A DNA stretch of 37,259 bases, from assembly GCA_964516165.1 (NCBI GenBank), contig CAZEYB010000002.1, forward strand, positions 1 through 37,259, read 5' to 3'. Shown here piece after piece: positions 3,888 through 23,086 of the stretch. The position numbers and the translations under genes were made by a program. Position 1 is the stretch's first letter. Every line of letters begins with the position of its first letter. The DNA is from an uncultured Bdellovibrionales bacterium (GTDB lineage: Bacteria; Patescibacteriota; Minisyncoccia; Moranbacterales; UBA2206). The notes under the pieces were generated by a model. That model saw only the letters and a program-made list of their open reading frames with translations, did no database searches and was not told where the DNA came from.

Positions 3888-6743
3888 CTAAGGCTTCAAT
3901 TTTTCACTAATTATCGCTATTGAAAAAATTTCTTCCCCGAATTTAAACTCTTTTTTCAAATCCATTTCGGGCAATTCGCCCGCTTCCACGCTTCCGGCCA
4001 AAGTTTCCTTCGCGATCAAACATCCAAACTTGGTGAAAACATCATCCGCGCCGACATAACCAATTTTGATGTGATTATCAACTTCGTAACCCGCTTCTTT
4101 GCGCATTTCCTGGATATAACGGATAATCTCCCGCGCTTGTCCTTCCAATTTCAGTTCGGATGTGATTTCAGTGTTTAACTCGACTTTATTTTCTGATCCG
4201 CTTTTGAAGATAACATTTTTGACATTAACTTCTTCTTTCATAATTTCCATGAAATCTTCTTGCTTTTCATAATTTGTAATTATCAATTCGGAAAGCGGTT
4301 GCCTGACCCTAATCCCATTCTTCGCGCGCAATTGCAAAGCTTCCGTAATAATATTTCTCGTATCGTCCATTTTTTCATTTAGATCCTCGTTAATCAATTT
4401 CTCATCGGCCGCGGGAAAATCAGCCAGATGCACCGAATCGTCATTCGTCAAGTTCTTATAAATTTCTTCCGCGATAAATGGAGTAAACGGCGCCATAATC
4501 TTTGACAATTCAATTAAAACGCAATGTAAAGTCTGGTAAGCCGCCTTTTTGTCATCATCATCCTCCGACTTCCAAAACCTTTTGCGGCTGCGGCGAATGT
4601 ACCAATTGGAAAGGTTGTCCACGAATACGGGAAGAAGCCGGGCCGCTTTGTAAAGCTCATAGTTTTCCATGTGGGCGTTAAACTCTTTTATGAGTCCGTG
4701 AAGTTCCGAGACAATCCATTTGTCCAGAATATTTTTGAGAGTTTTCAGATCAAAATCCTTGGCTGGCGTGAATTTATCGATGTTCGCGTAAAGCGCGAAA
4801 AAAGAATAACTATTCCAAAGCATGCGGAACATGCCTTTGAAAATTGTTTCCAGATCCCTATCTGAAAAATTCAAATTATCACCCTCCATCAAAGTTGATT
4901 GCATCAAATAGAATCTGAACGCGTCAGCCCCATAGCGGTTAACCAAGATATTGGGATCGGTGAAATTCCCCAAAGACTTCGACATTTTCTTGCCGTCATT
5001 TCCAGCGATAGTTCCGGTAGCGATAACATTTAAAAAGCTTGGTTTTTCAAAAAGTCCCACCGATAAAACATGCAACGTATAAAACCAGCCTCTGGTTTGA
5101 GCGGTATACTCGGATATAAATTGAGCCGGAAATCTCTTCTCGAATAATTCTTTATTTTCAAAAGGATAGTGCAACTCGGCAAAGGGCATGGAACCTGATT
5201 CCACCCAGCAGTCAAAAACATCCGGGATTCTTTTAGAATTTCCCCCGCACTTATCGCATTTGAAAACAATTTCGTCTATAAAAGGCCTGTGGTAATCATC
5301 AAGTTTCTTTCCCGCCAGCCCTTCCAGTTCTTCATACGAACCGACGACTTTTATTTCTCCGCACGCTTCGCACACCCAGATAGGAATCGGCGTCCCCCAA
5401 TATCGGGAACGCGAGACATTCCAATCGGGGGCGGTCTCCAAACCATTTTTAAATCGGCCTTCCTTAAGATGCCCGGGATGCCAATTTATCTTTTCATTCT
5501 GTTCAAGCAGTTTCTTTTTTAATTGGGAAACTTTAATAAACCAGGCGGGCTGAACTTTGTAGATTAATTTCGCGTCACAGCGATAACAATGCGGATAAGA
5601 GTGGATTATATTTTCTTTTTTAAACAAGCATCCGCTGTCCCGCAGAAATCCGACAATTTTAAAATTAGCCTCCCAAACGTTCACGCCCTTCCATTCTCCT
5701 TCCGTGAATTTTCCTTCTTCATCAACATTTTCTATCATAGGCAAATTACTTTCTTTTCCCGCCCGGAAATCGTCTTCGCCGAAAGCCGGCGCCATATGGA
5801 CGATCCCGGTTCCATCCTCGGCGGTCACAAAATCGCCATTAATCACTCTGTAACCATTTTTAATTTCACGCGGGAAGATTGGCTCATATTCAAGACCGGC
5901 TAATTCCTCTCCCTTCGCCTCTTCCTCAATTTCATATTCATCTTTAATGACTTCCAGCCGCTCTTTGGCAATAAAATATTTATCCTTTCCGATTTTCACT
6001 TTGGCATAAATCATTTTCTCGCCCACAGCCAAAGCGACATTGGCCAGCAATGTCCACGGCGTAGTGGTCCAAACAAGAAAATAGGTATTTTCCTTACCCT
6101 TTAATTTCATCTTTACATACACCGAAACATCCTTATCATCCTTAAAAGAGTTATCCATCGCGATTTCAAAATTGGAAAGCGGCGTGGAGCAACGCGGACA
6201 ATAAAGAGAAATTCTGGAATCTTTATAGGCCAATCCTTTTTTGTAAAGTTCCTTAAAGCCCCACCAGACAGACTCCATATAAGTAGAATCCATCGTTTTA
6301 TAGGAATTATCAAAATCCACCCAGCGGCCGATTCTTTTCACCGTTTTTCTCCACTCGTCGGCGAATTTAAGAACCATATTTCTGGCTTCCATGTTGAATT
6401 TCCCGATATTTTCCTCAATTTCTTTTTTGCTGTCATATCCCAGCTTTTGTTCCACCTTATTTTCGATTGGCAAACCATGCGTGTCCCAGCCCCAACGGCG
6501 AGGAACATTATATCCCTTCATGGTCCAATATCTTGGGACAACGTCTTTTGATATAGATGCCAGCAAATGGCCATGATGAGGCAATCCGGTCGCGAACGGC
6601 GGACCGTCGTAAAAAACATAAAGGGGCGCCTCTTCCCTGTTCTTCAAAGACTTTTCAAAAATTTTATTTTCTTCCCAAAATTTAAGAATTTCCTCTTCCA
6701 TTTGAGGGAAATTTCTGTTAAAATCGACTTTCTTGAATTTCAT
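3888..6743 (-). CDS. ileS: isoleucine--tRNA ligase, type 2 (eukaryote/archaea-like form)
   Basis: Motifs: FYDGPPFATGLPHHGHLL (HIGH region of type-2 IleRS), KMSKS (GKKMSKSLGN), and CP1 editing and zinc-type Cys motifs. I place the start at MKFKKVDF (ATG 6743). The 29 upstream codons in the ORF track overlap the T-box leader. Confidence 0.95.
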   Translation of the reverse strand: MKFKKVDFNRNFPQMEEEILKFWEENKIFEKSLKNREEAPLYVFYDGPPFATGLPHHGHLLASISKDVVPRYWTMKGYNVPRRWGWDTHGLPIENKVEQKLGYDSKKEIEENIGKFNMEARNMVLKFADEWRKTVKRIGRWVDFDNSYKTMDSTYMESVWWGFKELYKKGLAYKDSRISLYCPRCSTPLSNFEIAMDNSFKDDKDVSVYVKMKLKGKENTYFLVWTTTPWTLLANVALAVGEKMIYAKVKIGKDKYFIAKERLEVIKDEYEIEEEAKGEELAGLEYEPIFPREIKNGYRVINGDFVTAEDGTGIVHMAPAFGEDDFRAGKESNLPMIENVDEEGKFTEGEWKGVNVWEANFKIVGFLRDSGCLFKKENIIHSYPHCYRCDAKLIYKVQPAWFIKVSQLKKKLLEQNEKINWHPGHLKEGRFKNGLETAPDWNVSRSRYWGTPIPIWVCEACGEIKVVGSYEELEGLAGKKLDDYHRPFIDEIVFKCDKCGGNSKRIPDVFDCWVESGSMPFAELHYPFENKELFEKRFPAQFISEYTAQTRGWFYTLHVLSVGLFEKPSFLNVIATGTIAGNDGKKMSKSLGNFTDPNILVNRYGADAFRFYLMQSTLMEGDNLNFSDRDLETIFKGMFRMLWNSYSFFALYANIDKFTPAKDFDLKTLKNILDKWIVSELHGLIKEFNAHMENYELYKAARLLPVFVDNLSNWYIRRSRKRFWKSEDDDDKKAAYQTLHCVLIELSKIMAPFTPFIAEEIYKNLTNDDSVHLADFPAADEKLINEDLNEKMDDTRNIITEALQLRAKNGIRVRQPLSELIITNYEKQEDFMEIMKEEVNVKNVIFKSGSENKVELNTEITSELKLEGQAREIIRYIQEMRKEAGYEVDNHIKIGYVGADDVFTKFGCLIAKETLAGSVEAGELPEMDLKKEFKFGEEIFSIAIISEKLKP

Positions 6744-8105: not shown

Positions 8106-9236
8106 CTAAAAAGCTTCTTTTTTTCTGCCGTATAAAAACGCGTTCTTTTCGCCAAAACTGGGAATCATTTCGTCTTTTCGGGAAATATCCTTAAAACTTT
8201 TTTTAAGAATTTTTTCAAGGATAGAAACGGCGTCTAAACGCTTAGACGTTACTTTGGAAGCTCCCGCTTGCAGACTTATCCAGCCATTGTCATTCAAAGC
8301 GTCTTTGGATAAACCGATTATTTCTTTGTAAAATTTCCTAAAATCTTTCCGATCTTTTTTACGGACCGGATCATCCGTTAAATCGCAAACAATCCCATCG
8401 AATTTTCCATTCTTGTTAATAGTGTTCTTCAAATAATGAAAAGCGTCTTCAATATACAGCTGGACTCTGGGGTCTTTAAATATTCTCTGATCCAGATATT
8501 TTTCACATCCCTTGCATACCTCGACATCCAAATCGATAATCTTGATTTTTAAACTTGGATTTATTTTGAGCGCCATTTCGGCCACATAGCCATCCCCGCC
8601 TCCAAGTATCAATAACTTTTTGTCTGTTTTGCGCAACTTTTTCAATATGGCTTTGTCATAAACTTCATGATCCATTTCGGCAGTTTGCATTATGCCGTCA
8701 ATTACCAGACAGCGCCTGAAATCGGAAGTATCCAAAAATAAAATATCCTGAAAATCAGATTTGATTTTACCGATGATATTCTTCACTTTGATTCTCATTT
8801 CTTCTCCGGTGCTAAAAATCGGAATAGCCAGCTCGCATTTATCATTAATGATTTTCTGAAAATTAAAAAATTTATAACCGCGTTCGAGTTCCTTTATTTC
8901 GACTTTTTTGTGAAAAACCCGGCCTATCAAAAAATCGACCAGTTCTTTGGTTTTTTTGTACGGCGAGCAACTGAAAACATCGCAAGCCGCGTAATTATAT
9001 TCCGGCCAGGTATGCACGGAAACATGGGAAGACGCCAATAACAAAAAACCTGTTATTCCATTGGGATCAAAACGATAGAAACTGTCGCCGAGAACCGGCA
9101 AATTGAATTTTTTTGTTCCCCCTTTCAGTATATCTTTCCAGAAATTCATGTCGTCAATTTGCTTTTCATCGCAACCAAAAAACTCAATCAGAAAATGCAC
9201 TCCGTCAGGATGGCTGTTTTTGAGTATTTTTTTCAT
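8106..9236 (-). CDS. bifunctional S-adenosylmethionine decarboxylase (pyruvoyl, SpeH/SpeD class 1) / spermidine-synthase-like aminopropyltransferase fusion
   Basis: N-terminal region: GFLLLASSHVSVHTWPEYNYAACDVFSC (AdoMetDC processing and active-site region). C-terminal region: LLILGGGDGYVAEMALK..IKIIDLDVEV..DGIVCDLTD (SpeE-type SAM-fold motifs). The track's start at 9281 is a GTG. I prefer ATG 9236 (MKKILKN), which is preceded by GAAGG. Confidence 0.8.
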   Translation of the reverse strand: MKKILKNSHPDGVHFLIEFFGCDEKQIDDMNFWKDILKGGTKKFNLPVLGDSFYRFDPNGITGFLLLASSHVSVHTWPEYNYAACDVFSCSPYKKTKELVDFLIGRVFHKKVEIKELERGYKFFNFQKIINDKCELAIPIFSTGEEMRIKVKNIIGKIKSDFQDILFLDTSDFRRCLVIDGIMQTAEMDHEVYDKAILKKLRKTDKKLLILGGGDGYVAEMALKINPSLKIKIIDLDVEVCKGCEKYLDQRIFKDPRVQLYIEDAFHYLKNTINKNGKFDGIVCDLTDDPVRKKDRKDFRKFYKEIIGLSKDALNDNGWISLQAGASKVTSKRLDAVSILEKILKKSFKDISRKDEMIPSFGEKNAFLYGRKKEAF

Positions 9237-9348
9237 AAAAACCTTCGCGGTTATTTTATGCTTCGTATTTAATGATAGCACAGAATCGCAAATCCTGGTA
9301 GAAATAATGAGCTTCCTGAATTCAAACCCCGAAGCCTCTTTTTTTCTA

Positions 9349-9528
9349 TTATTTTGATCGACAGTCCTTAATCTCTATCCCGCCTTTAATCCTTTTGACT
9401 TTAACTTTTTGCTTTTCTCGCCAACCTAACTCTTTACGCATTTCAATGGGAATGGTAACCGCCAAACTGGTTTTTCCTACTTTGGTAATTTTTCGGATAT
9501 TTTTTTCTTCACTTTTTCTTGTTGTCAT
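9349..9528 (-). CDS. AbrB/MazE/SpoVT-type DNA-binding protein (59 aa), no partner toxin gene
   Basis: Below the ORF-track cutoff. My translation is MTTRKSEEKNIRKITKVGKTSLAVTIPIEMRKELGWREKQKVKVKRIKGGIEIKDCRSK*. The K-x-G-x-S-x-x-V-T-I-P-x-x-x-R-x-x-L-G pattern is the swapped-hairpin AbrB/SpoVT signature. Confidence 0.65.
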   Translation of the reverse strand: MTTRKSEEKNIRKITKVGKTSLAVTIPIEMRKELGWREKQKVKVKRIKGGIEIKDCRSK

Positions 9529-9632
9529 ATTTTTATTATAATACTTATCCCTGAAGTACAGCCAAGCTGACTACAGGGTAAATCTAATACGTATTATAAT
9601 ACTTACTTCCAATAAATGGGAGTTCCTTTTTC

Positions 9633-9732
9633 GCCGTTCGCGCGCGGGCGGGTCTGGAACAAGTAAATTTTTATTTTTAACTTCTGTCGTTTTTTTGTTC
9701 CGCCGCCCGCAAAATCCGCTCCGAAAAATGGG
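9633..9732. repeat. copy 2 of the ~100-nt local repeat family (partner at 1388-1487)
   Basis: Same orientation as copy 1. The stem position A/T in copy 1 (1406/1462) is G/C here (9651/9707), so pairing is preserved. Confidence 0.8.
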
Positions 9733-9827
9733 AAGGTTTGATTATGGCACGGGGTAGTGAAGGACGTTAGAACTATATTTTTGAAAAGGAAGGAATATAT
9801 TTATATTCCTGACTTTGCAAGATAAAC

Positions 9828-10457
9828 TTACTTCCTAGCAACAACTACCCAATTTACTCTGTCATTTAAATCCAACCTTAAACTGCTAAATTCAGAAAAT
9901 ATCTTTTCGATTTCTTCTTTATCAAAAAAGCTATGAGCCAAACCAGTTTCCGGTCCTGACAATGGAGAAAATGTTCCTTCTGCCAATTTTTTATTATTTT
10001 TAAATGTGTCCCAACTTTTAATATTGCTTATATCAGGCAAGGTAATGAAAACAAAACCACCAGGTAAAAGTGAATTATAAATTTTATTAATCAATTCACT
10101 GATATCTTTTTTTAAACCGTGATGGATGGAAGAAATTGAAAATACTAAATCATACGTATTGAATGGATAATCATATTTATAAATATCGGCATAAATTAGA
10201 TTGGCCCTGGATCCCAAAACTTTCCTGCTCATTTCTATGGCAGTTTCACTGGAATCGATACCATTTATTTCAAATCCTAGTTTTTGCAAATAAGCTAAAT
10301 AGCGACCATTACCGCAACCAATATCTAAAACATTCTTAGCAATAAAATTAGTATTTTTTACAAACTCCAAAAACTCTGGAAGCAAATCATACTTCAGACT
10401 TCCCCAAGGTTTTCCATCTTTCTTATAACTCTTGTATATTTTGTCCCAAATGGTCAT
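9828..10457 (-). CDS. class I SAM-dependent methyltransferase
   Basis: Motif I is VLDIGCGNGRYLAYL, followed by the acidic post-I residue (INGIDSS) and YDLVFSISSIHH. Substrate unknown. Confidence 0.85.
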   Translation of the reverse strand: MTIWDKIYKSYKKDGKPWGSLKYDLLPEFLEFVKNTNFIAKNVLDIGCGNGRYLAYLQKLGFEINGIDSSETAIEMSRKVLGSRANLIYADIYKYDYPFNTYDLVFSISSIHHGLKKDISELINKIYNSLLPGGFVFITLPDISNIKSWDTFKNNKKLAEGTFSPLSGPETGLAHSFFDKEEIEKIFSEFSSLRLDLNDRVNWVVVARK

Positions 10458-12390: not shown

Positions 12391-14496
12391 ATGTCAAGAA
12401 GTCGATCGGACAAAAAAATTTCCTATCTTGATTCCAGCTTCAAGGATATTTTGGTATGCAAAAAAAATGAGCGCCGGCCTTACATGGAAATTTTCATCCA
12501 AGAACCGGAAAATATCGGGGAGCAAAGCTTGGGAACTATCGCGGGAATTTTGGAAATTGTCGATGATTCCGAAGATTCCTCTTACATAGTCAATTACCTC
12601 ATTTCAATAATCAAAAAAGAATATTTTTCCAAAGTCAAACGAGGAGCCATTGAAAGCCTGGAAGGAGCTCTGCATAAAGTTAATTTGGCTTTGGCCAAGC
12701 TGGCCCAGCACGGAAATATCAATTGGATCGGAAAATTTAACGCTATCGTGCTGGTTATTGAAAAAAATAATATCCACTTGTCGCAAACCGGAAGCGCTAA
12801 AGCTTTGATGCTTAGAAAAAAGATTCTCACGGATATCAGCGAAAGCGCTCCATCAGGCGAAGAGCCTAATCCGCTCAAAACCTTTATCGACGTGCTCTCC
12901 GGAAGACTAGAGAATAATGACAAACTGATAATAACCACGGACAGCATCTTTGATATATTTTCTTTTGAAGAGATAAAAAGAAGCGCCCTTAAATTTTCTT
13001 CTTCCGATTTTATCCAGTTTCTGAAAACGGCTCTGGGAAACGAACTGGAAAAAGCGATGGTCCTGATAGTGGAAACTCAAGAAAAAAACAGAACAGTACT
13101 TCAGCCGGACGGAAAAACTAAAACTAAACTCAACGCTTTCAGCCAAACAACCTTTTCCAAAGTTTCCCGGAGAGCTTCGGTCCAGGAAGGAAAACGAAAA
13201 ATCGCCGAAGAACTCAAAGACGAACTCAAAAAAAGCCGCGGCGAATTTGTCGACCAAAAAACCGGGCATATCTATATAAAGGAGGACCGTTTCCTGAAAG
13301 AAGAGAAACGGGATTTATCCTTGCAGAGCATAACCGGCTTCTTATCCCAATTGATAAAATGGCCGAAAATATCTTTAAGAAGCCGGAAAAATTTGGAACG
13401 GGCTATCGTAGCTCGAGCGGAAGAAAAATTATTAGGCAGAGAAGAAATGCCAAAAGGCCTTTGGAATTCTATAAAAATCGGCTCCGAAAAAATTTATTTT
13501 ACGTTAATAAGGCTATTATCAAAAGTCCGCGGAATCGCTTTAAAAATCATGCCCCGAATTTCCCGGCTGAAAAACATAATTTCCGGATTGGATTATTCCC
13601 AAAAGCTTTATGCCGCCCTGGCGGTGATACTGCTTTTCATAGTTCCTTATTTCATCGTAAAAATCCAGAACAAGAGCGAAAACAGCGATTCAGTTTCGCC
13701 CGAAGCAACGGCTCCCGTTTTCGCGCCGCTGGAACAAGATAAAAATGTTTCTGTTATCACCGACTTAAGCCATGCCTATTCCGGCAGCGACATCATGGGA
13801 ATCGCGAATCTAAAAGACAGTTTTTTTACCGTAAGCCGGACAAAAATAACCGATCCAAAGAATAACAAAAGCTACCCGATGCCGGAAAACTTCATTCCGG
13901 CAAAAATAGCCGGCATGGATGACTTAAACCTGCTGTTTCTTCTGGGTGAAAATAATTCGCTTTTGAGCTGGAGCCCGCTTTCCGGAAAATTTCAGGAAAA
14001 TCAGCTGGTTATTCCGGAAAACTCCGCGTCGGTTTCCTTAAAAACTTACCTGACTTACCTTTATTTTCTGGATTCCAAAAATAATCAGATTTATCGTTAT
14101 CCGAGAGCGGAAGGCGGTTTTGGCGCCGGCGTCAATTGGATAAAAGAAAACATTGATCTTTCCCAAACTAAAGACCTAGCGGTCAGTGAGAACATTTATA
14201 TAGCCGGTCCCGGCCAAATTATCAAGCTTTACCGCGGCAAGAAACAGGATTTCGCCATAGAAAATACCGCCACGCCGATTAAAGCGGATAAGATTTATAC
14301 CATAAGAGACGGGCAATATATTTATGTTATGGATCAGACCAACGCCCGAATTATCAAACTAGACTTAAACGGCGCCATCGTTTCCCAATATTACAACGCC
14401 GAAATTAAAAACGCCGCGGATTTTACCGTGGACGAAACCGCGAACTTAATCTACTTTTCCACTTCCGACAGCGTAAAGAGTTTTGGGATTAATTAA
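12391..14496 (+). CDS. hypothetical membrane protein: ~400-aa cytoplasmic N-terminal region, one TM helix, ~280-aa C-terminal repeat-like extracytoplasmic domain
   Basis: 701-aa ORF with GGGGGT 10 nt upstream of the ATG. The TM segment is LYAALAVILLFIVPYFIV. The C-terminal part has recurring motifs (NQIYRYPRAEGGFG, QIIKLYRGK, ARIIKLDLNG, LIYFSTSD) suggestive of a beta-propeller. No function motif recognised. Confidence 0.6.
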   Translation: MSRSRSDKKISYLDSSFKDILVCKKNERRPYMEIFIQEPENIGEQSLGTIAGILEIVDDSEDSSYIVNYLISIIKKEYFSKVKRGAIESLEGALHKVNLALAKLAQHGNINWIGKFNAIVLVIEKNNIHLSQTGSAKALMLRKKILTDISESAPSGEEPNPLKTFIDVLSGRLENNDKLIITTDSIFDIFSFEEIKRSALKFSSSDFIQFLKTALGNELEKAMVLIVETQEKNRTVLQPDGKTKTKLNAFSQTTFSKVSRRASVQEGKRKIAEELKDELKKSRGEFVDQKTGHIYIKEDRFLKEEKRDLSLQSITGFLSQLIKWPKISLRSRKNLERAIVARAEEKLLGREEMPKGLWNSIKIGSEKIYFTLIRLLSKVRGIALKIMPRISRLKNIISGLDYSQKLYAALAVILLFIVPYFIVKIQNKSENSDSVSPEATAPVFAPLEQDKNVSVITDLSHAYSGSDIMGIANLKDSFFTVSRTKITDPKNNKSYPMPENFIPAKIAGMDDLNLLFLLGENNSLLSWSPLSGKFQENQLVIPENSASVSLKTYLTYLYFLDSKNNQIYRYPRAEGGFGAGVNWIKENIDLSQTKDLAVSENIYIAGPGQIIKLYRGKKQDFAIENTATPIKADKIYTIRDGQYIYVMDQTNARIIKLDLNGAIVSQYYNAEIKNAADFTVDETANLIYFSTSDSVKSFGIN

Positions 14497-14589: not shown

Positions 14590-15591
14590 TTAATTGGATT
14601 GCCGTAATTTATTTGTAATTATTTTATCAACATTCCTATCAAAACAGTAGTTGCCCTTACTATATGTCCATTCGTTATCATTTTCGTTATACGGATATCC
14701 CGACTCATCCGTTTTATAATCAGTACTCGCTCGCTTGAAATCCGCACATAATTTGTAACTAGTAACCCCAACCTTCTTATATATTATTAGTTTGGTTATT
14801 GTTTTGTTAAAGTAATAATCATTCTTTTTTAAATCATCTAGAGAGGAAGGCAACATTGAATTTTCTTTGTAATAATCTGAGATCTGATTTTCTATCATTC
14901 TAAGGTTGGAAACGGTTTGCTGGTCTATTTTCTTATCTCGGCTGGCAAAAGGACTATCAATAATGGTAAATCCCATAACAATGCTTCCTAACGCAACTAG
15001 TATGACTATTCCAGCTAAAATTTTATTTGTCGAATTTATACTCCCGACCATATTCTTCTTTTTTATATCAATCAGATAATAGAAGAAAATTGATCCGGCT
15101 ATCGCTAAAACTACTACCGTTTTCAAAATAAATCTAGCCACAATGTCCCCGCTAAGCATGTTATAAACAAGCGATATCAAATCGCCTAAAATAGTACCAG
15201 CAGTAAGAAATAATATAATATAAGTCAGCCATTTTCTAATTTTAGAGTCTTCCGATATTTTTCCTTCATATAAATATTTATTAATCAAATAAGCCAGAGC
15301 AAGATAAACTGGAGTAGCGATAATAAGAGACGCAATGCCGTATTTAACAGCACCTTGGTAAAAATAGCCAATATAATCGTATTCCAAAGCGGAAGTGTCT
15401 GAAATATTTTTGTTTATTATTTGGAATAATATTGCTCCTACGCCTGTACTGAAAGAACATAAAGAAAGAAAAGATACTAAATAAAGAAAGAAATGCATGG
15501 CAGGATTTTTAGACTCATTAGCGTTGGAAATAGGTTGAGGTGATGGTTGTTGATTATAATTTATCTGACTTTGATTGTCTTGATTTTCCAT
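14590..15591 (-). CDS. hypothetical multi-pass membrane protein (Q/N-rich N-terminus, 5-6 TM helices, Cys-containing C-terminal domain)
   Basis: 333-aa ORF. The hydrophobic segments are clear, for example FFLYLVSFLSLCSFSTGVGAILF and ILAGIVILVALGSIVMGFTII. It resembles the membrane proteins annotated as DUF5671 in CPR genomes; that comparison is from memory and unverified. Confidence 0.6.
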   Translation of the reverse strand: MENQDNQSQINYNQQPSPQPISNANESKNPAMHFFLYLVSFLSLCSFSTGVGAILFQIINKNISDTSALEYDYIGYFYQGAVKYGIASLIIATPVYLALAYLINKYLYEGKISEDSKIRKWLTYIILFLTAGTILGDLISLVYNMLSGDIVARFILKTVVVLAIAGSIFFYYLIDIKKKNMVGSINSTNKILAGIVILVALGSIVMGFTIIDSPFASRDKKIDQQTVSNLRMIENQISDYYKENSMLPSSLDDLKKNDYYFNKTITKLIIYKKVGVTSYKLCADFKRASTDYKTDESGYPYNENDNEWTYSKGNYCFDRNVDKIITNKLRQSN

Positions 15592-15646: not shown

Positions 15647-15722
15647 TCAATCATATTTCATCTTCGTCCTTTCCATTATTTCCCGATTCACGATATTCTT
15701 GTCGCGGCCGAATTTCAAGCAA
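15647..15722 (-). pseudogene. relic of the last ~23 codons of a TraD/VirD4-like ATPase gene (direct-repeat copy of 17116-17180)
   Basis: 15656-15720 matches 17116-17180 at 61 of 65 nt. The relic reads LKFGRDKNIVNREIMERTKMKYD*; the intact gene ends LKFGRDKNIVNREIMERTKMKSV*. Confidence 0.8.
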
Positions 15723-15744
15723 CAGAAGTGAAGATTAATATCAC

Positions 15745-16329
15745 TCACATATCATCTATAGTATACAATTTATCCCTAACAATTGGTAGTTCGGTAACGC
15801 CCGCTTCTTCGTTGAAGTGACCCATAGCGTGCAGAACGATAATTTCCGAACCCAATTTATTTTTAAAATCTTCCCAATTGTCGAGCGACACATACGGATC
15901 GTTATCGGAAAAGATGGCGGCACTTTTGGGCAGATGTCTTCTCACTTTATCAGTATCAAGTGGCGTAGTTATCCATTCGCGGTCTACGTCAATTCCCATC
16001 GGCTCCTGCTCCAAATTAGTGATATGCTGGAAAAATCCAGCGACAAAAACCGCCCCGCCAACTTTGACATTTTCTGGCAAAGTAGCCAGATAACGGACAA
16101 TCGTCTGGCAGCCCATCGAATGGCCGACAAAATACGTTTCGGCGTCCGCTGTTCCAACCGCTTTGGCGAGCGCCGGCACCCATTTGGCAATTCTTGGCTC
16201 GCCAGCGTCCGGAAGCTGGGGCACGCTGACTGCAAAGCCTTTAGCTTCCAGTTCTTTTTTAAGCCAGGGGAACCAGTTTATTTCCGGAGAGCCGTCCCAG
16301 CCATGAATAATAAAAACTCTTTTTTTCAT
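15745..16329 (-). CDS. alpha/beta hydrolase, YdeN/RBBP9-like serine hydrolase family
   Basis: MKKRVFIIHGWDGSPEINWFPWLKKELEAKGF, the nucleophile elbow VGHSMG, and a C-terminal HAMGHF. The size (194 aa) fits PF06821-type serine hydrolases. Confidence 0.8.
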   Translation of the reverse strand: MKKRVFIIHGWDGSPEINWFPWLKKELEAKGFAVSVPQLPDAGEPRIAKWVPALAKAVGTADAETYFVGHSMGCQTIVRYLATLPENVKVGGAVFVAGFFQHITNLEQEPMGIDVDREWITTPLDTDKVRRHLPKSAAIFSDNDPYVSLDNWEDFKNKLGSEIIVLHAMGHFNEEAGVTELPIVRDKLYTIDDM

Positions 16330-16350
16330 AAATTTATTTCTGCTCTTTTT

Positions 16351-16379
16351 ATCTTACTAAAAAACCGCTTTATAGTCAA
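16351..16379 (-). promoter_or_regulatory. putative sigma70-type promoter of the hydrolase gene
   Basis: On the minus strand: TTGACT, a 17-nt spacer, TAAGAT. The -10 element ends 21 nt upstream of ATG 16329. Confidence 0.4.
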
Positions 16380-16417
16380 AAAATCCAGGTGGCGGAGATG
16401 GGGTATTTTTAAATTTC

Positions 16418-16478
16418 AAGGTCACAATTTGCGACCTTAGAGACTCGGTCTTTTTGGAAATCACAATTTGTGACTTCC
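16418..16478. promoter_or_regulatory. two related 21-23-bp palindromes (candidate operator pair or paired hairpins)
   Basis: 16418-16438 is AAGGTCACAATTTGCGACCTT and 16456-16478 is GGAAATCACAATTTGTGACTTCC. They share the core TCACAATTTGYGAC, and their flanks differ but stay self-complementary. Confidence 0.5.
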
Positions 16479-16551
16479 AATTCTGCCCGCTTGAAGCGCC
16501 CAAATGAAACTTCGACATCCTCTCCGTATGACTTCCCTAATAATAAAGTTA

Positions 16552-16582
16552 TTTACTCCCGTAAACTGGATTACGGGATTAT
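16552..16582. repeat. 30-nt inverted-repeat copy A (hairpin TCCCGTAA-n6-TTACGGGA), just 3' of the TrpR-like gene
   Basis: The reverse complement TAATCCCGTAATCCAGTTTACGGGAGTAAAT matches 17031-17061 (TAATCCCGTAATCCAGCTTGCGGGATTAAAT) with 3 mismatches. Confidence 0.75.
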
Positions 16583-16596
16583 CAAAATATATGTTT

Positions 16597-17013
16597 TTAT
16601 TTCTTAAGCAGGTTGCTCAAAAAATAATGCATCGGATATTTTTTGCGCACCCATTCCCGCGAAAAAGGTTCGGCCGGAATCATTTCCTTACTGGCGTATT
16701 TTTTCCTATATTTGTCTATAATTTTTTTATACCCCCCAAAACCGTTATTTAGCCATCTTTCCACATGGCTTATGGTAGTTCCTCCTACTTTCAAATCTTT
16801 TTTAATTTTTTCGTAACTTAGCCCTTCCAAAAGCATCTTCGCTATTTGAATCCTTCGAGTAATCATCACGGTTTCACTTAATGTCAGAAGATCTTTAAAA
16901 AAATTTTTGGCCTCATCCCGACTTCCAAAAAGAGCAACCATAGAATAGAATTCTCCCAAAAATTTTTTCTTTTGGTTCTCGGAAAGTTCGTGATATTTAA
17001 CTTTTCCAGGCAT
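16597..17013 (-). CDS. TrpR-like (YerC/YecD family) helix-turn-helix protein
   Basis: FFKDLLTLSETVMITRRIQIAKMLLEGLSYEKIKKDLKVGGTTISHVERWL follows the LLT..E...L..R..I...LL.G.SY..I......S.ATI.RV pattern of Trp-repressor-like YerC proteins. Confidence 0.7.
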   Translation of the reverse strand: MPGKVKYHELSENQKKKFLGEFYSMVALFGSRDEAKNFFKDLLTLSETVMITRRIQIAKMLLEGLSYEKIKKDLKVGGTTISHVERWLNNGFGGYKKIIDKYRKKYASKEMIPAEPFSREWVRKKYPMHYFLSNLLKK

Positions 17014-17030
17014 AAACGAAATTCATATCC

Positions 17031-17061
17031 TAATCCCGTAATCCAGCTTGCGGGATTAAAT
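17031..17061. repeat. 30-nt inverted-repeat copy B, just 5' of the TrpR-like gene and 3' of the ATPase gene
   Basis: See copy A. The stem is TAATCCCG/CGGGATTA. Confidence 0.75.
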
Positions 17062-17106
17062 ACCAAAAATAAATATAGATTATAGATACAGATAATTCAA
17101 GACCCA

Positions 17107-19599
17107 CTACACGCTTTTCATCTTCGTCCTTTCCATTATTTCCCGATTCACGATGTTTTTATCCCGGCCGAATTTCAAGCGGGAGAGTTCCTTAAGAGCG
17201 TTGGCGATTTCCTGGTCGCCAAAAGTCGGCGGATAAATAGTGATATTAAAAGGCTTGGTTAAAATATTATCGATTAGGATCCGGGCAAATCCCTGATAAT
17301 TATCAACATTCACCAAATCCTGTTTGGAAAAAACGGGGATAAAATTCTTTTCCAAAAATTCGGCGTCTTCCGGACCGACGCGGAAAGCTATCATCGAACC
17401 AACGTTGCCGAACACCGCTTTGGAAATTTCTTCTTTGAGCTGTCCGATGAACTGATGGGCTAGTACCAGACACAAATGATATTTTCGGGCCTCGGAAAGA
17501 ATCTGGGCGATAGAATTGGTCGTAACGTTCTGGAATTCGTCCAGATACAGATAAAAATCCTGTCTCTGATCTTCCGAGACGCTGGCGCGAGCCAGCGCGT
17601 TCATAAGAATTTTTCCGACCACAATCATACCGAGCAGCCGCGCGTTGATTTCTCCGATTTTCCCCTTGGAAAGATTAATCAGCAGAATTTTTTTATTATC
17701 CATCGCGTCGCGGAAATCAATGGTGGATTTCTGCTGAGCGATAATCGGCCGCATTAAATCGTTAGAAATAAAAGTCGTGAGTTTGGAAGTGATGTATGGC
17801 ACCATATTGGCGAGCGCCGCTTCGCCACCGGCTTTTTCCGCTTCCTTAGTCCAGAAATCCACCACGGTCGGATTGGCGCATTTTTTAATCTTCATGGCCC
17901 GAAACTCTTCATCCGCCAGAACTTTGGGAATTTCCATAAGCGTGGATCCGGACTCGGGATCCTCCATCACCAAAAGCATGGCGTTTCGCATATATTGCTC
18001 AAACATCGGGCCGCCCGTCTGCTTTAAATCGTACAATTGGTCAAAAATTCCGATCATTTCGTTGATGACGAAAGTTTTCTGCTCGGGATGGGCCGGATCG
18101 TATTCCATCATATTAAGCCCAAATGGCCGTTCGGTATCGGCCGGATCAAAAATAATCACTTCTTCCGCCCGCTCCTTGGGAATGGAAGCCAAAATATCCT
18201 CAATAGCGTCGCCGTGCGGATCGATGAAACAGAATCCCCGACCTTCTTTGGCATCCTGTTTGGCCATTTCCTGCAAGAAATTGGATTTACCCACTCCGGT
18301 CTGGCCGATGGCGTAAAGGTGGCGGCGGCGATCTTTGCCTGAAATCCTGATCGGTGTTTTCACTCCCCGATAATCGTTAAAACCGAGAATGATAGAATCA
18401 GGACCGTCAGGCGGAATGTCCACTGGCGGAGCGGAAGCGTTGGATTTAAGCATTTTTATCTTAGGTGTTTCCGTTGTCGAAATAGGCAAATGGAAAATGC
18501 TGGAAATTTCTTCGTTGTTTAAAATAATCGAATTTTCTTCGCTGAAATTCCGAAAAATAAAATTATAAGCGATATCTTTTTTCTTAACCCGCTTTTTTAC
18601 CTGAAAACAATTAATGTCCCCGTTTTCATATTGAGAAAAAGCGTTTTCCATTTGCCCGAGAATCATTTGCGCCCGTTCGGTTGTCGCCGCCGAAGCCACT
18701 AATCGGATATTAGCTTTATATCCCGTCTTACTGGCTTTGCTTTCAATGCTTTTCACTAATTCCTGCTCTTCCGGCGTTAATTGCACCAGTTTAGGTTCGG
18801 CTGGAAATGAACCATCCTTTTTTGGCGCCAACGCGCCGGACAGGGCTTTACTCAAGTCTATTCCCATTTTGGCGACAGCTGATCGCTCTACATCCTTAAG
18901 CCTCTTGCCCTGTTGCATTTCCTGGGCGATTTTCCGTCCTTTGGATCGCCAAGCAGAACCCGCCGGCTTGAGCACCAACTGAATCGCCGCTCCTTCAGCC
19001 ACTGTTTCAAGTTTTGAAAGAGCGTTGGTTATGGCGTTCAGAGGATCGACTTCCATGTTTTCATAGGTCCTCACGGGAAGCGTATACCTGTTTTTCAATT
19101 TAATAATCGAGGCTTCGGTAAAACTGCCCGGGAAAAAAATGTTATAATCCCGGGATTTTTCCAAAATAGCGTGAGGAAAAAAACTATGGATTTGTTTTTC
19201 AACCGATTCCCTGAATTTTTTCGGCAGGGCGATATAAAAAATTATTTCTTCGCTTTTGGCGCCGTTGGCGATTTCAAAGCTGATGCAGGGCGAACCGTAA
19301 ACGAACCGGTTAAAAACGCTTCTTGTATCTTTAATGGAAGAAAGAGCGGTAAGCAACTGCTCCATCGCTCCAATTTCTTCTTTCCACATTTCTTGCGCTT
19401 TTATTTTCTCGTTCGGCTCCGGTTTTTCCCCTTTGGAAACCCGGATTATCTCCAAATCCAGATTCATCGATTGATTGATTCCGGAGCGGAATCTCATGAC
19501 GCTTTGAACTACCATAAAAATACCGCTTACAAGAGAAGCGGAAGCGGATAAAAAAAGAGCAAGAACAATAAAATCGTTCAAATTAACAGTGAATATCAT
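17107..19599 (-). CDS. membrane-anchored P-loop ATPase of the TraD/VirD4/TraG (type IV coupling protein-like) / HerA-FtsK superfamily
   Basis: N-terminal TM helix FIVLALFLSASASLVSGIFMVV. Walker A is HLYAIGQTGVGKSNFL followed by CFIDPHGD. Walker B is DFYLYLDEFQN. The downstream LCLVLAHQFIGQL motif matches the coupling-protein-like ..TQ...QL block. Confidence 0.7.
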   Translation of the reverse strand: MIFTVNLNDFIVLALFLSASASLVSGIFMVVQSVMRFRSGINQSMNLDLEIIRVSKGEKPEPNEKIKAQEMWKEEIGAMEQLLTALSSIKDTRSVFNRFVYGSPCISFEIANGAKSEEIIFYIALPKKFRESVEKQIHSFFPHAILEKSRDYNIFFPGSFTEASIIKLKNRYTLPVRTYENMEVDPLNAITNALSKLETVAEGAAIQLVLKPAGSAWRSKGRKIAQEMQQGKRLKDVERSAVAKMGIDLSKALSGALAPKKDGSFPAEPKLVQLTPEEQELVKSIESKASKTGYKANIRLVASAATTERAQMILGQMENAFSQYENGDINCFQVKKRVKKKDIAYNFIFRNFSEENSIILNNEEISSIFHLPISTTETPKIKMLKSNASAPPVDIPPDGPDSIILGFNDYRGVKTPIRISGKDRRRHLYAIGQTGVGKSNFLQEMAKQDAKEGRGFCFIDPHGDAIEDILASIPKERAEEVIIFDPADTERPFGLNMMEYDPAHPEQKTFVINEMIGIFDQLYDLKQTGGPMFEQYMRNAMLLVMEDPESGSTLMEIPKVLADEEFRAMKIKKCANPTVVDFWTKEAEKAGGEAALANMVPYITSKLTTFISNDLMRPIIAQQKSTIDFRDAMDNKKILLINLSKGKIGEINARLLGMIVVGKILMNALARASVSEDQRQDFYLYLDEFQNVTTNSIAQILSEARKYHLCLVLAHQFIGQLKEEISKAVFGNVGSMIAFRVGPEDAEFLEKNFIPVFSKQDLVNVDNYQGFARILIDNILTKPFNITIYPPTFGDQEIANALKELSRLKFGRDKNIVNREIMERTKMKSV

Positions 19600-19613
19600 A
19601 AAAATTCATCTGA

Positions 19614-20102
19614 TTATATTTCCTTAATCAAGCCTTTTTTAACCAACGCGGAGTGCAACTCTTCTCCCAGTAACCGGTCATGAAATTCATCCAGCGTGTA
19701 ATTGTCTTCCATATGGCGAGCCACTTTCACCGCGTGCGGTATGCCTTTGATTTCAGCTAACTCAATTAAATTATTAATTTTACTTTCAGCGTCCATTCCC
19801 CGATTGGCCGCTTCCGCGTCAGCGGAAACATCCGCCGCGCCGGGAACGGCTGGTTTTTTAGTCGTTATCCCGGAAAGAATTTTGTAATAAACCGCCTCTC
19901 TTTCCGCCGAGTTTTCTTTCTCTTCCAGCCGCTTTTCAATGGCCTGCGTCAGTTCTTTTTCCGGTAGAGCTTCCGGTTTTTCCAAAGCGGTTTTTTTAAT
20001 CCCCGCTCCGCCGATAAATTTTTCCTTGAGATTAAGGTCATTTTCATCAATTGGCTCAAGATTAGGCTTTGTTTGGTCAGGCATAAAATTTATATTACCC
20101 AT
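19614..20102 (-). CDS. hypothetical soluble protein (acidic, Ala/Glu-rich), second-to-last gene of the ATPase operon
   Basis: ORF of 162 aa from ATG 20102; the track's 20105 start is a TTG. It ends 14 nt before the ATPase start. No motif recognised. Confidence 0.5.
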   Translation of the reverse strand: MGNINFMPDQTKPNLEPIDENDLNLKEKFIGGAGIKKTALEKPEALPEKELTQAIEKRLEEKENSAEREAVYYKILSGITTKKPAVPGAADVSADAEAANRGMDAESKINNLIELAEIKGIPHAVKVARHMEDNYTLDEFHDRLLGEELHSALVKKGLIKEI

Positions 20103-20186
20103 CAAATCTACAAATCTCTTACAAATCTACGAATTAGATTTTTTATTATTTGTATATTTGCAGTTGATTCGTTGATTTGCGGGAAA

Positions 20187-20483
20187 CTATTGTTTTTTCA
20201 TTTCTTCTTTAAAATCTTCCACTATTTTTTTTACCATTTCGTCGTAATTTTGGATTTTTTCAGCAAGAAATTTTTCCATTTCCTCCGGCGTGGCTTTGTT
20301 TTCAATCAATTGATTGTAAGCTTCCTGATCGTCATGGGATAATTTTTCCATCGTCTCGACAAAAATCCGTTTAAGCACCACTTCGGTCATTTTAATGAGC
20401 AGTTGCTCTTGCTTGTCTTGAGACAAGTTAGAAAGCCCCAGTTCGTCAATTAATTTTTTTTGAATCGCGTTTTGATCGGGCAT
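20187..20483 (-). CDS. small helical hypothetical protein (98 aa), CPR-typical family
   Basis: MPDQNAIQKKLIDELGLSNLSQDKQEQLLIKMTEVVLKRIFVETMEKL. It resembles proteins annotated as DUF5663 in Parcubacteria; that comparison is from memory and unverified. Confidence 0.55.
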   Translation of the reverse strand: MPDQNAIQKKLIDELGLSNLSQDKQEQLLIKMTEVVLKRIFVETMEKLSHDDQEAYNQLIENKATPEEMEKFLAEKIQNYDEMVKKIVEDFKEEMKKQ

Positions 20484-20514
20484 AATTTTTTAATAAATTT
20501 TTATACTTTATTAT

Positions 20515-22983
20515 TCAAGCAGCCATTTTTTGTTCAACTTTTTCCGCGGCAATGGAAGCATCCACATTCCTGGCCAGCCATTGCCTGACCGTTTCTCCTT
20601 TTTTGTGCTTAGCTCCGATTCCTAAAAGCGCGATAAAATCTTTTTCCAGATTCTCGATATTTTTGGCCAACTTCGGACTAAGCGGGTTGTCTTTTCTTTT
20701 CAGACTTTCAAATTCAACGTTCTTCATTATAGACCAATTTTCCAAACTGCCTAGAGATATTTTCTTTATAGTTTTTTTGGCCCGGGAGAAGAAACTGTCT
20801 TTCTTATCAAACTCGTATTTTTTGGCTAATTTTTTAAATTCTCCGTACTTCATCAAATCAATCACCTTGGCTTTTTTTATTTCGGCTAGTTTTTTTGTTC
20901 CGATCGTTCCCGCTCCGACTGCCACTGCTCCGCCAATCACTTCTTTGCCCGATAACGATTCCACGGAAAGATCTTCGGTTTTCAACTCTTCGGCTATTTT
21001 AACGGCAGCATCTTCAGTTTTCAACTCTTCGACTATTTTACCGGTAGCGTCTTCGGTTTTATTCGCCTCAAAATCTTCGGCTATTTTACCGGCAGCGTCC
21101 TCGGCTTTCAACTCTTCGGCTGCTTTATCAACAGCATTCTCCGGTTTTAACGTTTCAGCTGTTTTATCAATAGTATCTACTGCTTTCAGTTCCTCGGTTA
21201 TATCGCTAGTTGCTATTTTTTGATCCCCGATCCATTCAGAACCCGGCGCGCTATCTTGAAAACCAATAACGCTTTTTCCGTCCGGACTAAGTTCTATGCA
21301 CGCTCCCGGATGGACTAAATTAAATCCCTTTTTGGTTAGGTCGGGATGATCTTTAATAAAATCAAGATACATCCGGTGGGCTAACCAGCCAGATTGACCC
21401 TTTCCCGTCCCTTTTTCTACTCCATGAGATTCTAAATATTTAATAATCGAGCCCTGAAAACTACCGCCTCTGCCTTTTTCAACCGTTAAATCAATATTTT
21501 TTGAAATTTCGGTAAATTTTTCTATCGGAACTTCCTCGGCAGACGGAGCTTCTTCGGCAAACGGAACTTCTGCGGCAGATGGAGCTTCTTCGGCAGACGG
21601 AACTTCCGCAACAGGCGGAACTTCCGGAGCGGGAATATTTTCCGGAGAAGTTTCGGCTATGTCCGGAATCATGTTCTCCTGATTGGGTTTCGGATTGTCG
21701 TAATCAAAATTTTCAGTCGGTATTTTCTCCTCCACTGATCCTGCTGGAACTTCAGCCGATCCGAAATAATGCCCGAATCCAGTTTTCGTCAGATAGGATA
21801 CAGCGCCTGATCCAACCGCTATTCCAAAACCAGCGCCGATAAACCTTCTGTTCAGAGCTTTCCTCTTTTCTCTTTCCAAACTTTGTTTATAAGTATCCAC
21901 TTCAGATCTAAGTTTTTCCATAATCGCTTCAAAGCGTTCATTGACATCAATATCTTCAAAATCCTTAAGCATTTCTTCTTTTTCTTTTTTTGACTTCCGG
22001 CTGTCCAGTTTTCTGCGAAATCCTTCCTGGATAGCCACAGCGCCTGCTCCCCCAGCCGCTCCGCCCATAATCCTCTGTCCGATTTTTCCCGCCGAAATAA
22101 AAGCCATAAGCCCGGCGGCGCCGGAAATTCCGGCCGTGGCCGCGAATCCCGCTCCCACTCCGCCAGCCAGCAGAACGCCTGAAAAAGCCAATTTATACTT
22201 CAGCGGCAGTTTGCGATACCAATTGACAATTTGGGAACTTTTTTCCCACAATTTATGACTCCACTGATCTTTTCTCGCTTCTGTTCTGGCGTTAGTTCTA
22301 GCTTCGTATAAATTAGTTTTCTCGACATTATTGAAATAGATTATCAATTCTCCCATTTCCCGCTTAAGATCGCTGGGATCCATCTTGGAACTTTTTAAAG
22401 CCTCAATTTTGGCATCGAGATAATTATTAAGCGAGTTTTTATATTCCTTATAAAGATAGCTTTCATCCGCTACGTCTTTGGAAGTAGTTTTCATTCCCAC
22501 CCCCAAAAAACCCTTGAGACGAGTAATCGCGTTAGAGAGTTCGTAATCTTTTCTGGCATAATCGCCTCGAGTTCTTTCTATTTCCTGTCTTATTTTTTTT
22601 AGTTCCGGAGTTTCTCCCATTTCGACTAAATCCGTGAGTTCAATTATTTCATCCTCCTTCTCTATCTTCGGTTCATCTATTTTCAGTTCATCTATTTTCG
22701 GTTTATATGTTTCTACAAATTCATCCAATTTATCCAGTTTAATCGGTTTTTCCCTTCGCCCGTTTTCATATCCGCTGTCGAATATAATCGCCTCCCCGGT
22801 TTTAGGATCATAAGAATTGACATATATCCAATCGGAACTCGAGTTGCCGTCTTTAAATATATTCACCTTAAGAATATCGCCGTATTTTTGTTTGAATTCA
22901 TCATAAGAAAATTTTCCCGAAGGTCCTACTCGGCTGATTTCACTGCCAGTTTCATCCGTAAGCGTGTTCCCTTTCTCTTCCAT
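20515..22983 (-). CDS. large hypothetical membrane protein with Gly/Ala-rich TM segments and two internal tandem-repeat tracts
   Basis: 822 aa from ATG 22983 (MEEKGNT); the track's 23022 start is a TTG. Gly-zipper-like hydrophobic segments are LAFSGVLLAGGVGAGFAATAGISGAAGLMAF, GGAAGGAGAVAI and IGAGFGIAVGSGAV. The repeats are AEVPSAEEAPSA and TEDAAxKIAEELK. Confidence 0.6.
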   Translation of the reverse strand: MEEKGNTLTDETGSEISRVGPSGKFSYDEFKQKYGDILKVNIFKDGNSSSDWIYVNSYDPKTGEAIIFDSGYENGRREKPIKLDKLDEFVETYKPKIDELKIDEPKIEKEDEIIELTDLVEMGETPELKKIRQEIERTRGDYARKDYELSNAITRLKGFLGVGMKTTSKDVADESYLYKEYKNSLNNYLDAKIEALKSSKMDPSDLKREMGELIIYFNNVEKTNLYEARTNARTEARKDQWSHKLWEKSSQIVNWYRKLPLKYKLAFSGVLLAGGVGAGFAATAGISGAAGLMAFISAGKIGQRIMGGAAGGAGAVAIQEGFRRKLDSRKSKKEKEEMLKDFEDIDVNERFEAIMEKLRSEVDTYKQSLEREKRKALNRRFIGAGFGIAVGSGAVSYLTKTGFGHYFGSAEVPAGSVEEKIPTENFDYDNPKPNQENMIPDIAETSPENIPAPEVPPVAEVPSAEEAPSAAEVPFAEEAPSAEEVPIEKFTEISKNIDLTVEKGRGGSFQGSIIKYLESHGVEKGTGKGQSGWLAHRMYLDFIKDHPDLTKKGFNLVHPGACIELSPDGKSVIGFQDSAPGSEWIGDQKIATSDITEELKAVDTIDKTAETLKPENAVDKAAEELKAEDAAGKIAEDFEANKTEDATGKIVEELKTEDAAVKIAEELKTEDLSVESLSGKEVIGGAVAVGAGTIGTKKLAEIKKAKVIDLMKYGEFKKLAKKYEFDKKDSFFSRAKKTIKKISLGSLENWSIMKNVEFESLKRKDNPLSPKLAKNIENLEKDFIALLGIGAKHKKGETVRQWLARNVDASIAAEKVEQKMAA
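20971..21210. repeat. in-frame tandem repeat, ~39-nt unit, about 6 copies (13-aa unit ..EDAAGKIAEELKT..)
   Basis: Units start near 20971, 21010, 21049 (48 nt), 21097, 21136 and 21175. They lie inside CDS 20515-22983. Confidence 0.75.
21528..21632. repeat. in-frame tandem repeat, 36-nt unit, about 3 copies (AEVPSAEEAPSA)
   Basis: GGAACTTCCTCGGCAGACGGAGCTTCTTCGGCAAAC and two degenerate copies, inside CDS 20515-22983. Confidence 0.75.
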
Positions 22984-23086
22984 ATAAAACCAAGTTATAT
23001 TTATGATTTTATTATACAACAAAAACCGCCTTTTAACTATCCGCTGGCATGTGGATAAGCTAATTCTGTGGTATAATCAATTCGCC

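Follow-up and report, generated by a model that had tools for sequence, protein, structure and literature searches.

A 37,259-nt chromosomal contig of an uncultured Candidatus Moraniibacteriota bacterium placed in the Moranbacterales (Patescibacteriota; GenBank CAZEYB010000002.1; hereafter the window) carries two copies of the 3′ end of a gene for a coupling-protein-like ATPase, one in its proper place and the other an orphan on the far side of two further genes. We consider this orphan copy to be the scar of one-ended homologous recombination, that is, of homology-facilitated illegitimate recombination (HFIR), at a hotspot of accessory genes, and give this reading a probability of roughly 0.55. 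The locus is best classed as a further instance of recombination scarring in a hotspot of accessory genes, and reveals neither a new mobile element nor a new molecular mechanism.

A repeat search located the two copies as direct repeats of 65 nt at 15656–15720 (R′) and 17116–17180 (R), identical at 61 positions (94%), starting 1,460 nt apart and matching each other in blastn with an E value of about 1e-22. Identity ends at both edges; the sequence from 15721 onward is unlike that from 17181 onward, and the 9 nt at 15647–15655 (TCAATCATA) are unlike those at 17107–17115 (CTACACGCT). All genes concerned (those for the ATPase, a TrpR-like protein, a hydrolase and a DUF5671 protein, as well as the relic) are on the minus strand. 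Read on that strand, the functional copy R continues KELSR with LKFGRDKNIVNREIMERTKMK and ends in SV-stop, forming residues 808–828 of the 830-aa open reading frame (ORF) at 19599..17107 and lying in the conserved C-terminal motif KELSRLKYGRDxxIVNREIMERTK. In the orphan copy R′, or relic, these 21 residues are likewise encoded in frame; HFCC stands before them, and the tail after them (15647–15655) is divergent, reading Tyr-Asp-stop as opposed to the Ser-Val-stop of the live gene. ATPase homology stops abruptly at 15720/15721, the putative illegitimate joint, and a 24-nt spacer (15721–15744) separates the relic from the stop codon of the hydrolase gene. The four differences (CGG/CGC, GAT/GAC, AAA/AAG and AAC/AAT) occupy the third positions of the consecutive codons for R, D, K and N and are all synonymous, which has a probability of 0.001 under random substitution and of 0.008 if only transitions are allowed. 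They lie within ten nucleotides, between identical blocks of 16 and 39 nt, and the probability that four differences fall in consecutive codons is 0.003. The initial annotation of the window, made without database searches, had described the repeat with its coordinates and abrupt edges, its coding content (KYD-stop in the in-frame orphan versus KSV-stop after the last 21 full codons of the ATPase gene) and the pattern of differences, and our analysis recovered each of these.

Since all of the differences are synonymous, the relic diverged as coding sequence, and on this pattern R and R′ are coding alleles rather than decaying non-coding repeats, as the initial annotation had also proposed. The relic matches R at 59 of 63 coding positions, compared with 54 of 63 for the best of approximately 160 orthologues, among which the synonymous positions of this segment vary freely. 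Because it is closer to R than to any orthologue, the relic must stem from the lineage of R itself or from one very close to it, and its source was most likely an ATPase allele of close relationship. Within the ATPase C-terminus, conservation is highest in the motif to which R belongs, and the orthologues become hypervariable after ...ERTKMK, exactly the point at which the similarity between R and R′ ends. This hypervariability explains why similarity stops at 15655; on the simplest reading, the downstream boundary of the relic is where two alleles cease to align and not necessarily a recombination joint. Codon choice in relatives at the four variable codons is uninformative as to which copy is ancestral. 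On the minus strand, a GTG in the relic frame overlaps the hydrolase stop codon (ATGTGA, 15745–15749) and begins a possible 33-codon ORF (15647–15749); no Shine-Dalgarno-like sequence lies ahead of this GTG.

Alleles of this locus were sought by contig scans with the ATPase, among 5.8 billion protein clusters, and through exact matches to four of its proteins (ATPase, hydrolase, DUF5671 and TrpR). The contig scans and protein clusters returned no ATPase with an identity between 83% and 100%, so there is no direct before-and-after comparison, and the empty site that the initial annotation had expected among relatives is not on record in the collections searched, nor is a parental allele. None of 120 ATPase homologues ends in KYD, and protein cluster membership likewise shows no KYD-tailed (switched or excised) ATPase allele.

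The duplication is not a product of assembly, a caveat raised in the initial annotation. Contigs of 10 further assemblies or samples (ENA MEGAHIT k141, JGI, Logan) show the same structure at 99.8–100% identity, and some of these assemblies were built at k=141, a k-mer longer than the repeat. Three contigs (L001, L002 and L163) span the junction from hydrolase to relic and nine span that from the ATPase end to the TrpR gene, and the orphan copy is therefore genuine. Two Logan contigs (L165 and L170) both begin at 17145, within the 39-nt identical block, which fits a genuine repeat at k=31. The final 52 nt of the ENA contig L001 (6303–6354, corresponding to the window just below 15457, in the DUF5671 gene) match neither the window nor any fetched sequence and are either a strain variant in that gene or a contig-end artefact. 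Contig L163 has three single-nucleotide differences in its last 90 nt, at the 3′ end of the 701-aa gene described below (window 14352–14429).

The relic lies in the gap between two conserved convergent genes. One is the ATPase gene (17107..19599, minus strand), encoding an 830-aa P-loop ATPase that resembles coupling proteins of type IV secretion systems (T4SS), with DUF8128, TrwB_AAD_bind and TraG-D_C domains (Pfam); the other encodes a conserved protein of 701 aa (g701; 12391..14496, plus strand). Through genome and metagenome contig scans, we fetched 160 related loci (L003–L162) with ATPase identities of 57–82%. The ATPase gene and the g701 orthologue are convergent neighbours in 93 of these Moraniibacteriota loci, where between 14 and 5,041 nt (median 298) separate the ATPase stop codon from the g701 3′ end. 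About half of these gaps contain no gene, and the others encode RCC1-like, PilX_N, DUF559, HAD, Bro-N, NUDIX, HIT or glyoxalase proteins, a C5 DNA methylase, a HepT/MNT toxin-antitoxin pair or one of two IS200-like Y1 transposases. These transposases are the only mobility-type matches among the scanned cargo ORFs, and no integrase or DDE transposase is among the matches listed for the 56 ORFs scanned. Given the variable gap size and the unrelated cargo, this is an accessory-gene hotspot with fast turnover, and the window, with a gap of 2.6 kb containing the TrpR gene, the hydrolase gene, the relic and the DUF5671 gene, shows one of its states. The nearest relatives in the protein database have an empty gap of 267 nt (L176; ATPase 82% identical at the amino acid level) and an unrelated gene (L177; 83%), and homologues of TrpR, PF06821 or DUF5671 are absent from this position in all 160 related loci. 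Chromosomal hotspots, or flexible genomic islets, between core genes are common in bacterial comparative genomics, and the window resembles them in that two conserved flanks enclose unrelated, rapidly exchanged accessory genes such as toxin-antitoxin pairs, methylases and small hydrolases. The present hotspot is a specific one, previously undescribed in Moraniibacteriota, and differs in retaining relics of the ends of its flanking genes.

The 1.46 kb enclosed by the repeats is not a unit. It does contain the two genes reported in the initial annotation, which encode a TrpR/YerC-like helix-turn-helix protein of 138 aa (16597..17013, minus strand; Trp_repressor family PF01371, E 3e-17) and a serine hydrolase of 194 aa (15745..16329, minus strand; Ser_hydrolase PF06821, E 3e-29), the latter being lineage-specific hotspot cargo. 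Their description as a mobile two-gene insertion, however, is not supported. From 17400 to 16554, the window is colinear with positions 5614–6472 of locus L173 at 77% nucleotide identity, through the ATPase end, a hairpin, the TrpR gene and a second hairpin, right after which (window 16554) the homology ends. In L173 and L174 (ATPase 79%, TrpR 83% identical), the TrpR gene is directly downstream of the ATPase gene and there is no relic, while a contig of a third lineage (P0244; TrpR 75%) has the order ATPase, TrpR, a 99-aa gene and the g701 orthologue. The TrpR gene must thus have resided beside the ATPase gene long before the duplication; it is a long-standing neighbour in this sub-clade rather than recent cargo, and the adjacency is about as old as the divergence of these lineages, whereas R and R′ differ at only four synonymous sites. 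TrpR-like orthologues occur throughout the phylum, and in distant lineages they are located elsewhere, for example between murC and murB. Homologues of the hydrolase with 62–78% identity are widespread in the candidate phyla radiation (CPR). The initial annotation had proposed searching for the hydrolase-regulator pair as a cassette at other loci; the two homologues nearest to the hydrolase (78% and 74%) are in unrelated neighbourhoods with no TrpR gene beside them. A travelling TrpR-hydrolase cassette is accordingly rejected, both on these neighbourhoods and on the colinearity of TrpR with the ATPase gene in L173. Sliding identity of the ATPase gene against 10 orthologues is star-like (75–82%), with no segment unusually close to L173 and hence no sign of mosaicism among these sequences.

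Two analogous scars were found at the same hotspot. In L018 (UBA11696), 122 nt of the ATPase 3′ end are directly repeated at 8331–8452 and 9754–9875, with 121 of 122 positions identical, and bracket two damaged genes: one for a methyltransferase, interrupted by an IS200-like element, and one for a hexapeptide-repeat transferase, present as a frameshifted 5′ fragment. The relic is fused directly to this truncated fragment, so that the joint truncates a gene, and on its other side it meets g701 in just the way that the intact ATPase end meets it in L013. Whereas the repeat of the window begins at L808 (LKFGRD...), that of L018 begins 19 codons further upstream in the gene (GFPPTKG...). In L048, the duplicated end is that of g701: a 51-nt relic, 80% identical with five synonymous and three residue changes, abuts the stop codon of the HepT/MNT pair, which sits between the relic and the live g701 end. 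The length of the repeat, its boundary, the cargo and even the target gene vary among the three scars, which argues against a fixed attachment (att) site. Furthermore, a RecA crossover within 51 nt of 80% identity is implausible, which favours a joint formed independently of the repeat.

The IS200-like gene of L018 (ORF 8979–9551; Y1_Tnp, HUH) is itself located within an N6-methyltransferase gene of a Moraniibacteriota metagenome-assembled genome and is accompanied by inverted repeats of approximately 54 nt (8891–8944 and 9486–9539) with the hairpin GGTTCAGGCG(T/A)(C/G)(T/A)CGCCTGAACC. It shows that an element of the IS200 or REP-associated tyrosine transposase (RAYT) type is present in this CPR group.

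HFIR combines a homologous anchor with an illegitimate joint and has been documented in Streptococcus pneumoniae, Acinetobacter baylyi and Pseudomonas stutzeri (PMC3240628). In the window, donor DNA from a closely related strain, probably entering by natural transformation, would have spanned the hotspot with an ATPase gene ending in ...KYD-stop, the DUF5671 gene and the 701-aa gene. Its long arm would have recombined homologously in the conserved 701-aa gene, while its other end would have reached only about 74 nt into the donor ATPase gene, too little for a second legitimate crossover, so that an illegitimate joint would have formed at this end, 24 nt past the 3′ end of the resident hydrolase gene. 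The resident ATPase-TrpR-hydrolase arrangement would be kept and the donor ATPase end orphaned; that the copies differ at synonymous sites alone would follow from their being alleles of a single gene. More generally, such a process would be expected to leave relics that are short (51–122 nt) and allele-like, with an arbitrary inner boundary and with either flank gene duplicated. The relic probably arrived together with the downstream DUF5671 gene (333 aa, a membrane protein by Pfam; 14590..15591, minus strand), which is lineage-specific cargo between the relic and the proposed anchor. This polarity is probably the reverse of that in the initial annotation, which had taken the relic for the orphaned native gene end; the TrpR gene is resident beside the ATPase gene, and it is the relic and the DUF5671 gene that we read as incoming. 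As in the described cases of HFIR, one conserved flank could serve as anchor, foreign genes adjoin an abrupt joint without homology at the opposite end, and DNA on the scale of 1 kb is gained without the need for a dedicated recombinase. The conserved 701-aa gene adjoins the putatively acquired DUF5671 gene and relic, and a breakpoint within it would be invisible without the parents. Patescibacteria are reported to carry comEC, pili, and competence and homologous-recombination genes (PMC12455944), and a DprA gene is located beside the hotspot in the relative L174; no DNA-uptake or RecA-dependent recombination machinery is encoded within the 37-kb window.

Several considerations weigh against HFIR at this locus. 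Neither the presumed donor arrangement (ATPase-KYD-stop, DUF5671, g701) nor a relic-free resident arrangement was found in the collections searched. The illegitimate joint in HFIR usually has 3–10 bp of microhomology, which only parental sequences would reveal here. A simple allelic origin does not predict the clustering of the differences in four consecutive codons; to explain it, one would have to suppose in addition, for example, that a short patch was converted or that the donor allele was a mosaic. Scars occur in only three of about 45 cargo-bearing hotspots, and the polarity rests in part on a topological argument of our own against duplications in canonical HFIR. Unlike the described cases, moreover, this one is reconstructed from a scar that arose naturally in an uncultivated member of the CPR; its parents and any microhomology at the joint are out of sight, and its visible hallmark, a stranded allelic copy of the 3′ end of the opposite flank gene, is not usually reported for HFIR. 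Because no parental or empty-site haplotype is present in the collections searched, we infer the mechanism and polarity, together with the donor, the anchor and the route of DNA entry, from the arrangement of the locus and its relatives.

The close alternative is an insertion-duplication of the Campbell type, in which a circularised fragment from a related strain, containing the last approximately 74 nt of the ATPase gene, the TrpR gene and the hydrolase gene, entered by a single RecA crossover within the 65 nt; the recipient ATPase gene would then have been followed directly by DUF5671. Insertion-duplication mutagenesis is used in S. pneumoniae. A single crossover of this kind yields exactly such an architecture, with direct repeats of a homologous segment flanking the insert, as seen in the window, L018 and L048, and flanking duplications of 109–950 bp are documented (PMC3240628). 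The 39-nt perfectly identical block in the window and the 121 of 122 identical positions in L018 also suit it. The repeats at this hotspot are shorter, however (65 nt with a 39-nt identical block in the window, 122 nt at 99% in L018 and 51 nt at 80% in L048): 65 nt with a central cluster of mismatches is marginal for RecA, the repeats of the window and L018 together range from marginal to adequate, and the L048 repeat could not carry such a crossover. The enclosed DNA moreover includes a gene that was already resident, as import of TrpR is required although its adjacency to the ATPase gene is old, both in the colinear L173 and in the third lineage. We therefore regard this explanation as possible but doubtful. 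Site-specific integration, as put forward in the initial annotation, would instead involve a small cassette with an att-like site in the ATPase 3′ end, which brings a replacement gene end with it, and a recombinase encoded elsewhere. Gene 3′ ends are known targets of prophages (in E. coli, icd serves both e14 and phage 21), as are the 3′ ends of tRNA genes, and the att duplications of prophages and islands resemble the window in leaving a functional gene end and an orphan copy with mainly synonymous differences. Identical cores of 39 and 16 nt are present within both repeats, the gene end is restored with synonymous differences, and the same gene end is independently duplicated in L018. Yet no integrase is found in the window or among the matches listed for the scanned hotspot cargo ORFs, there is no defined element, and the enclosed genes are not one unit. 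The boundaries in the window and L018 are 19 codons apart, L048 duplicates the other flank gene, and no KYD-tailed ATPase that could represent an excised state is on record. A degenerate back-translation of the repeat gave no matches in viral contigs, so that nothing resembling a phage attP was found there and the repeat is not carried by any of them. The att-like nature of the repeat ends is thus not borne out, and integration of this kind is unlikely.

It is more improbable still that the ATPase C-terminal segment and the 3′ end of its neighbour are attachment sites of an unrecognised CPR cassette-exchange system, integrase-free or with an integrase acting in trans, in which the TrpR-associated palindromes that separate gene modules in L173 (described below) might be involved, or that the relic is a translated mimic of the ATPase tail coupled to the hydrolase. 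In a related and very unlikely scenario, the 33-codon ORF expresses an ATPase C-terminal peptide as a decoy or regulator, or else the repeat pair permits recombinational switching between KSV-stop and KYD-stop tails. Synonymous-only differences would be expected if the peptide were under selection, the GTGA overlap of start and stop codons is suggestive, and the motif is the most conserved stretch of the ATPase C-terminus; an allelic origin explains the synonymous differences equally well, however, the GTG has no Shine-Dalgarno-like sequence before it, the L048 relic has residue changes while that of L018 is fused to junk, and a switched KYD-tailed allele is not on record. Least probable, and already largely refuted, are an intragenomic duplication, a decayed tandem paralogue or an assembly artefact. 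The copies are direct duplicates of the genome's own gene end only 1.46 kb apart, but their tails differ (SV-stop versus YD-stop). A tblastn search of the window at E values up to 10 returned no further ATPase-like sequence beyond the 21-residue relic, and each of the approximately 160 relatives has a single ATPase copy per locus, which excludes a decayed tandem paralogue; an artefact conflicts with the 10 other assemblies, some at k=141, that reproduce the structure.

The remainder of the window is ordinary chromosome, with genes for IleRS, MreB, MurA, RodA, L25, the delta′ subunit of DNA polymerase III and FtsQ; its only RNA genes at the Rfam gathering score are a tRNA-Glu, a 5S rRNA and a 23S rRNA end. 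Integrase (Phage_integrase), Resolvase, rve, transposase and relaxase domains are absent from the large window ORFs that have a Pfam match, consistent with the initial annotation; four ORFs (835, 701, 163 and 273 aa) have no Pfam match. Between 14400 and 17400, Rfam gave only sub-threshold chance matches, and a promoter and terminator scan was not above shuffled expectation. ATPase orthologues are 57–83% identical across Moraniibacteriota and keep their upstream neighbours (the 835-aa gene, a DUF5663 gene and the 163-aa gene). This set (17107–23022) and the convergent 701-aa gene form a chromosomal synteny block across L003–L162, around which neither a relaxase nor any further T4SS component is seen, and for these reasons the ATPase, despite its resemblance to coupling proteins, probably does not function in conjugation. 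The 835-aa gene, upstream of the DUF5663, 163-aa and ATPase genes, has no Pfam match, diverges rapidly among relatives and contains in-frame tandem repeats of 39 nt (five copies, 20933–21186) and 18 nt (five copies, 21527–21642). The window also contains a second long direct repeat, of 96 nt and 90% identity, at 1389–1484 and 9634–9729 (8,245 nt apart). Its copies are non-coding, are located just 3′ of minus-strand genes for a GNAT acetyltransferase and an S-adenosylmethionine (SAM) methyltransferase, and on the minus strand fold into a long hairpin, in which one A-U pair of one copy is G-C in the other, a compensatory change. They match no Rfam family at the gathering score and may represent a small structured RNA, a terminator or an element resembling a miniature inverted-repeat transposable element (MITE).

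In four lineages, the TrpR/YerC-like gene is found together with a palindrome of two 10-nt arms around TCCAG(T/C), and this holds even where the locus of the gene differs. In the window, one copy (16550–16581, centre TCCAGT) is just 3′ of the TrpR stop codon and is the last block colinear with L173, and an inverted copy (17031–17062) is 18–50 nt upstream of the start codon. Other copies are found in L173 (5972, 6449, 7256 and 8201), L175 (3389, 4326 and 4801) and L178 (5833, 6455, 6559 and 8899), with one upstream of the TrpR start, one approximately 20 nt past its stop and the others beside neighbouring genes; L173 has a copy after each hotspot gene module. The arms covary between lineages (CCCGTAA/TTACGGG versus ACAGTAT/ATACTGT) while the asymmetric centre is kept. 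In an alignment of the copies, 95% of cells are paired and five of 10 pairs change on both sides, counts that are biased upward as the copies were chosen for complementarity. The palindrome, which has no matches in viral contigs, may serve the TrpR-like protein as an operator, act as a terminator or be an element of the repetitive extragenic palindrome (REP) type. Small gene modules that are each followed by one palindromic element give L173 a likeness to integron cassette arrays or clusters of attC sites lacking integron-integrases (CALINs). The element, however, is a 10+6+10 palindrome rather than attC and tracks the TrpR gene even at other loci, and in the window it flanks TrpR only, with no copy after the hydrolase gene or at the relic and no IntI. 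An integron or CALIN array was therefore rejected, as no attC-type sites bound the cassettes and no integrase was found in the window. Upstream of the hydrolase gene (16330..16549, minus strand; L173 colinearity ends at the upper edge), two near-palindromes, GGTCACAATTTGCGACC (16419–16437) and ATCACAATTTGTGACT (16459–16476), are 39 nt apart and approximately 90–150 nt from the start codon. They appear operator-like, and the near-palindrome TCACAATTTG(C/T)GA has no counterpart near the hydrolase homologues or at other loci.

The locus defines a concrete accessory-gene hotspot, from the ATPase gene to the 701-aa gene, in Moraniibacteriota. If the interpretation as HFIR is correct, this locus and its two sister scars would be natural footprints of one-ended recombination in uncultivated Patescibacteria, organisms thought to depend on DNA uptake. 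Orphaned, allele-like 3′ ends of core genes would then offer a search handle for the gain and purging of genes in the CPR without mobile-element machinery, and could also map how far away the acquired genes come from.

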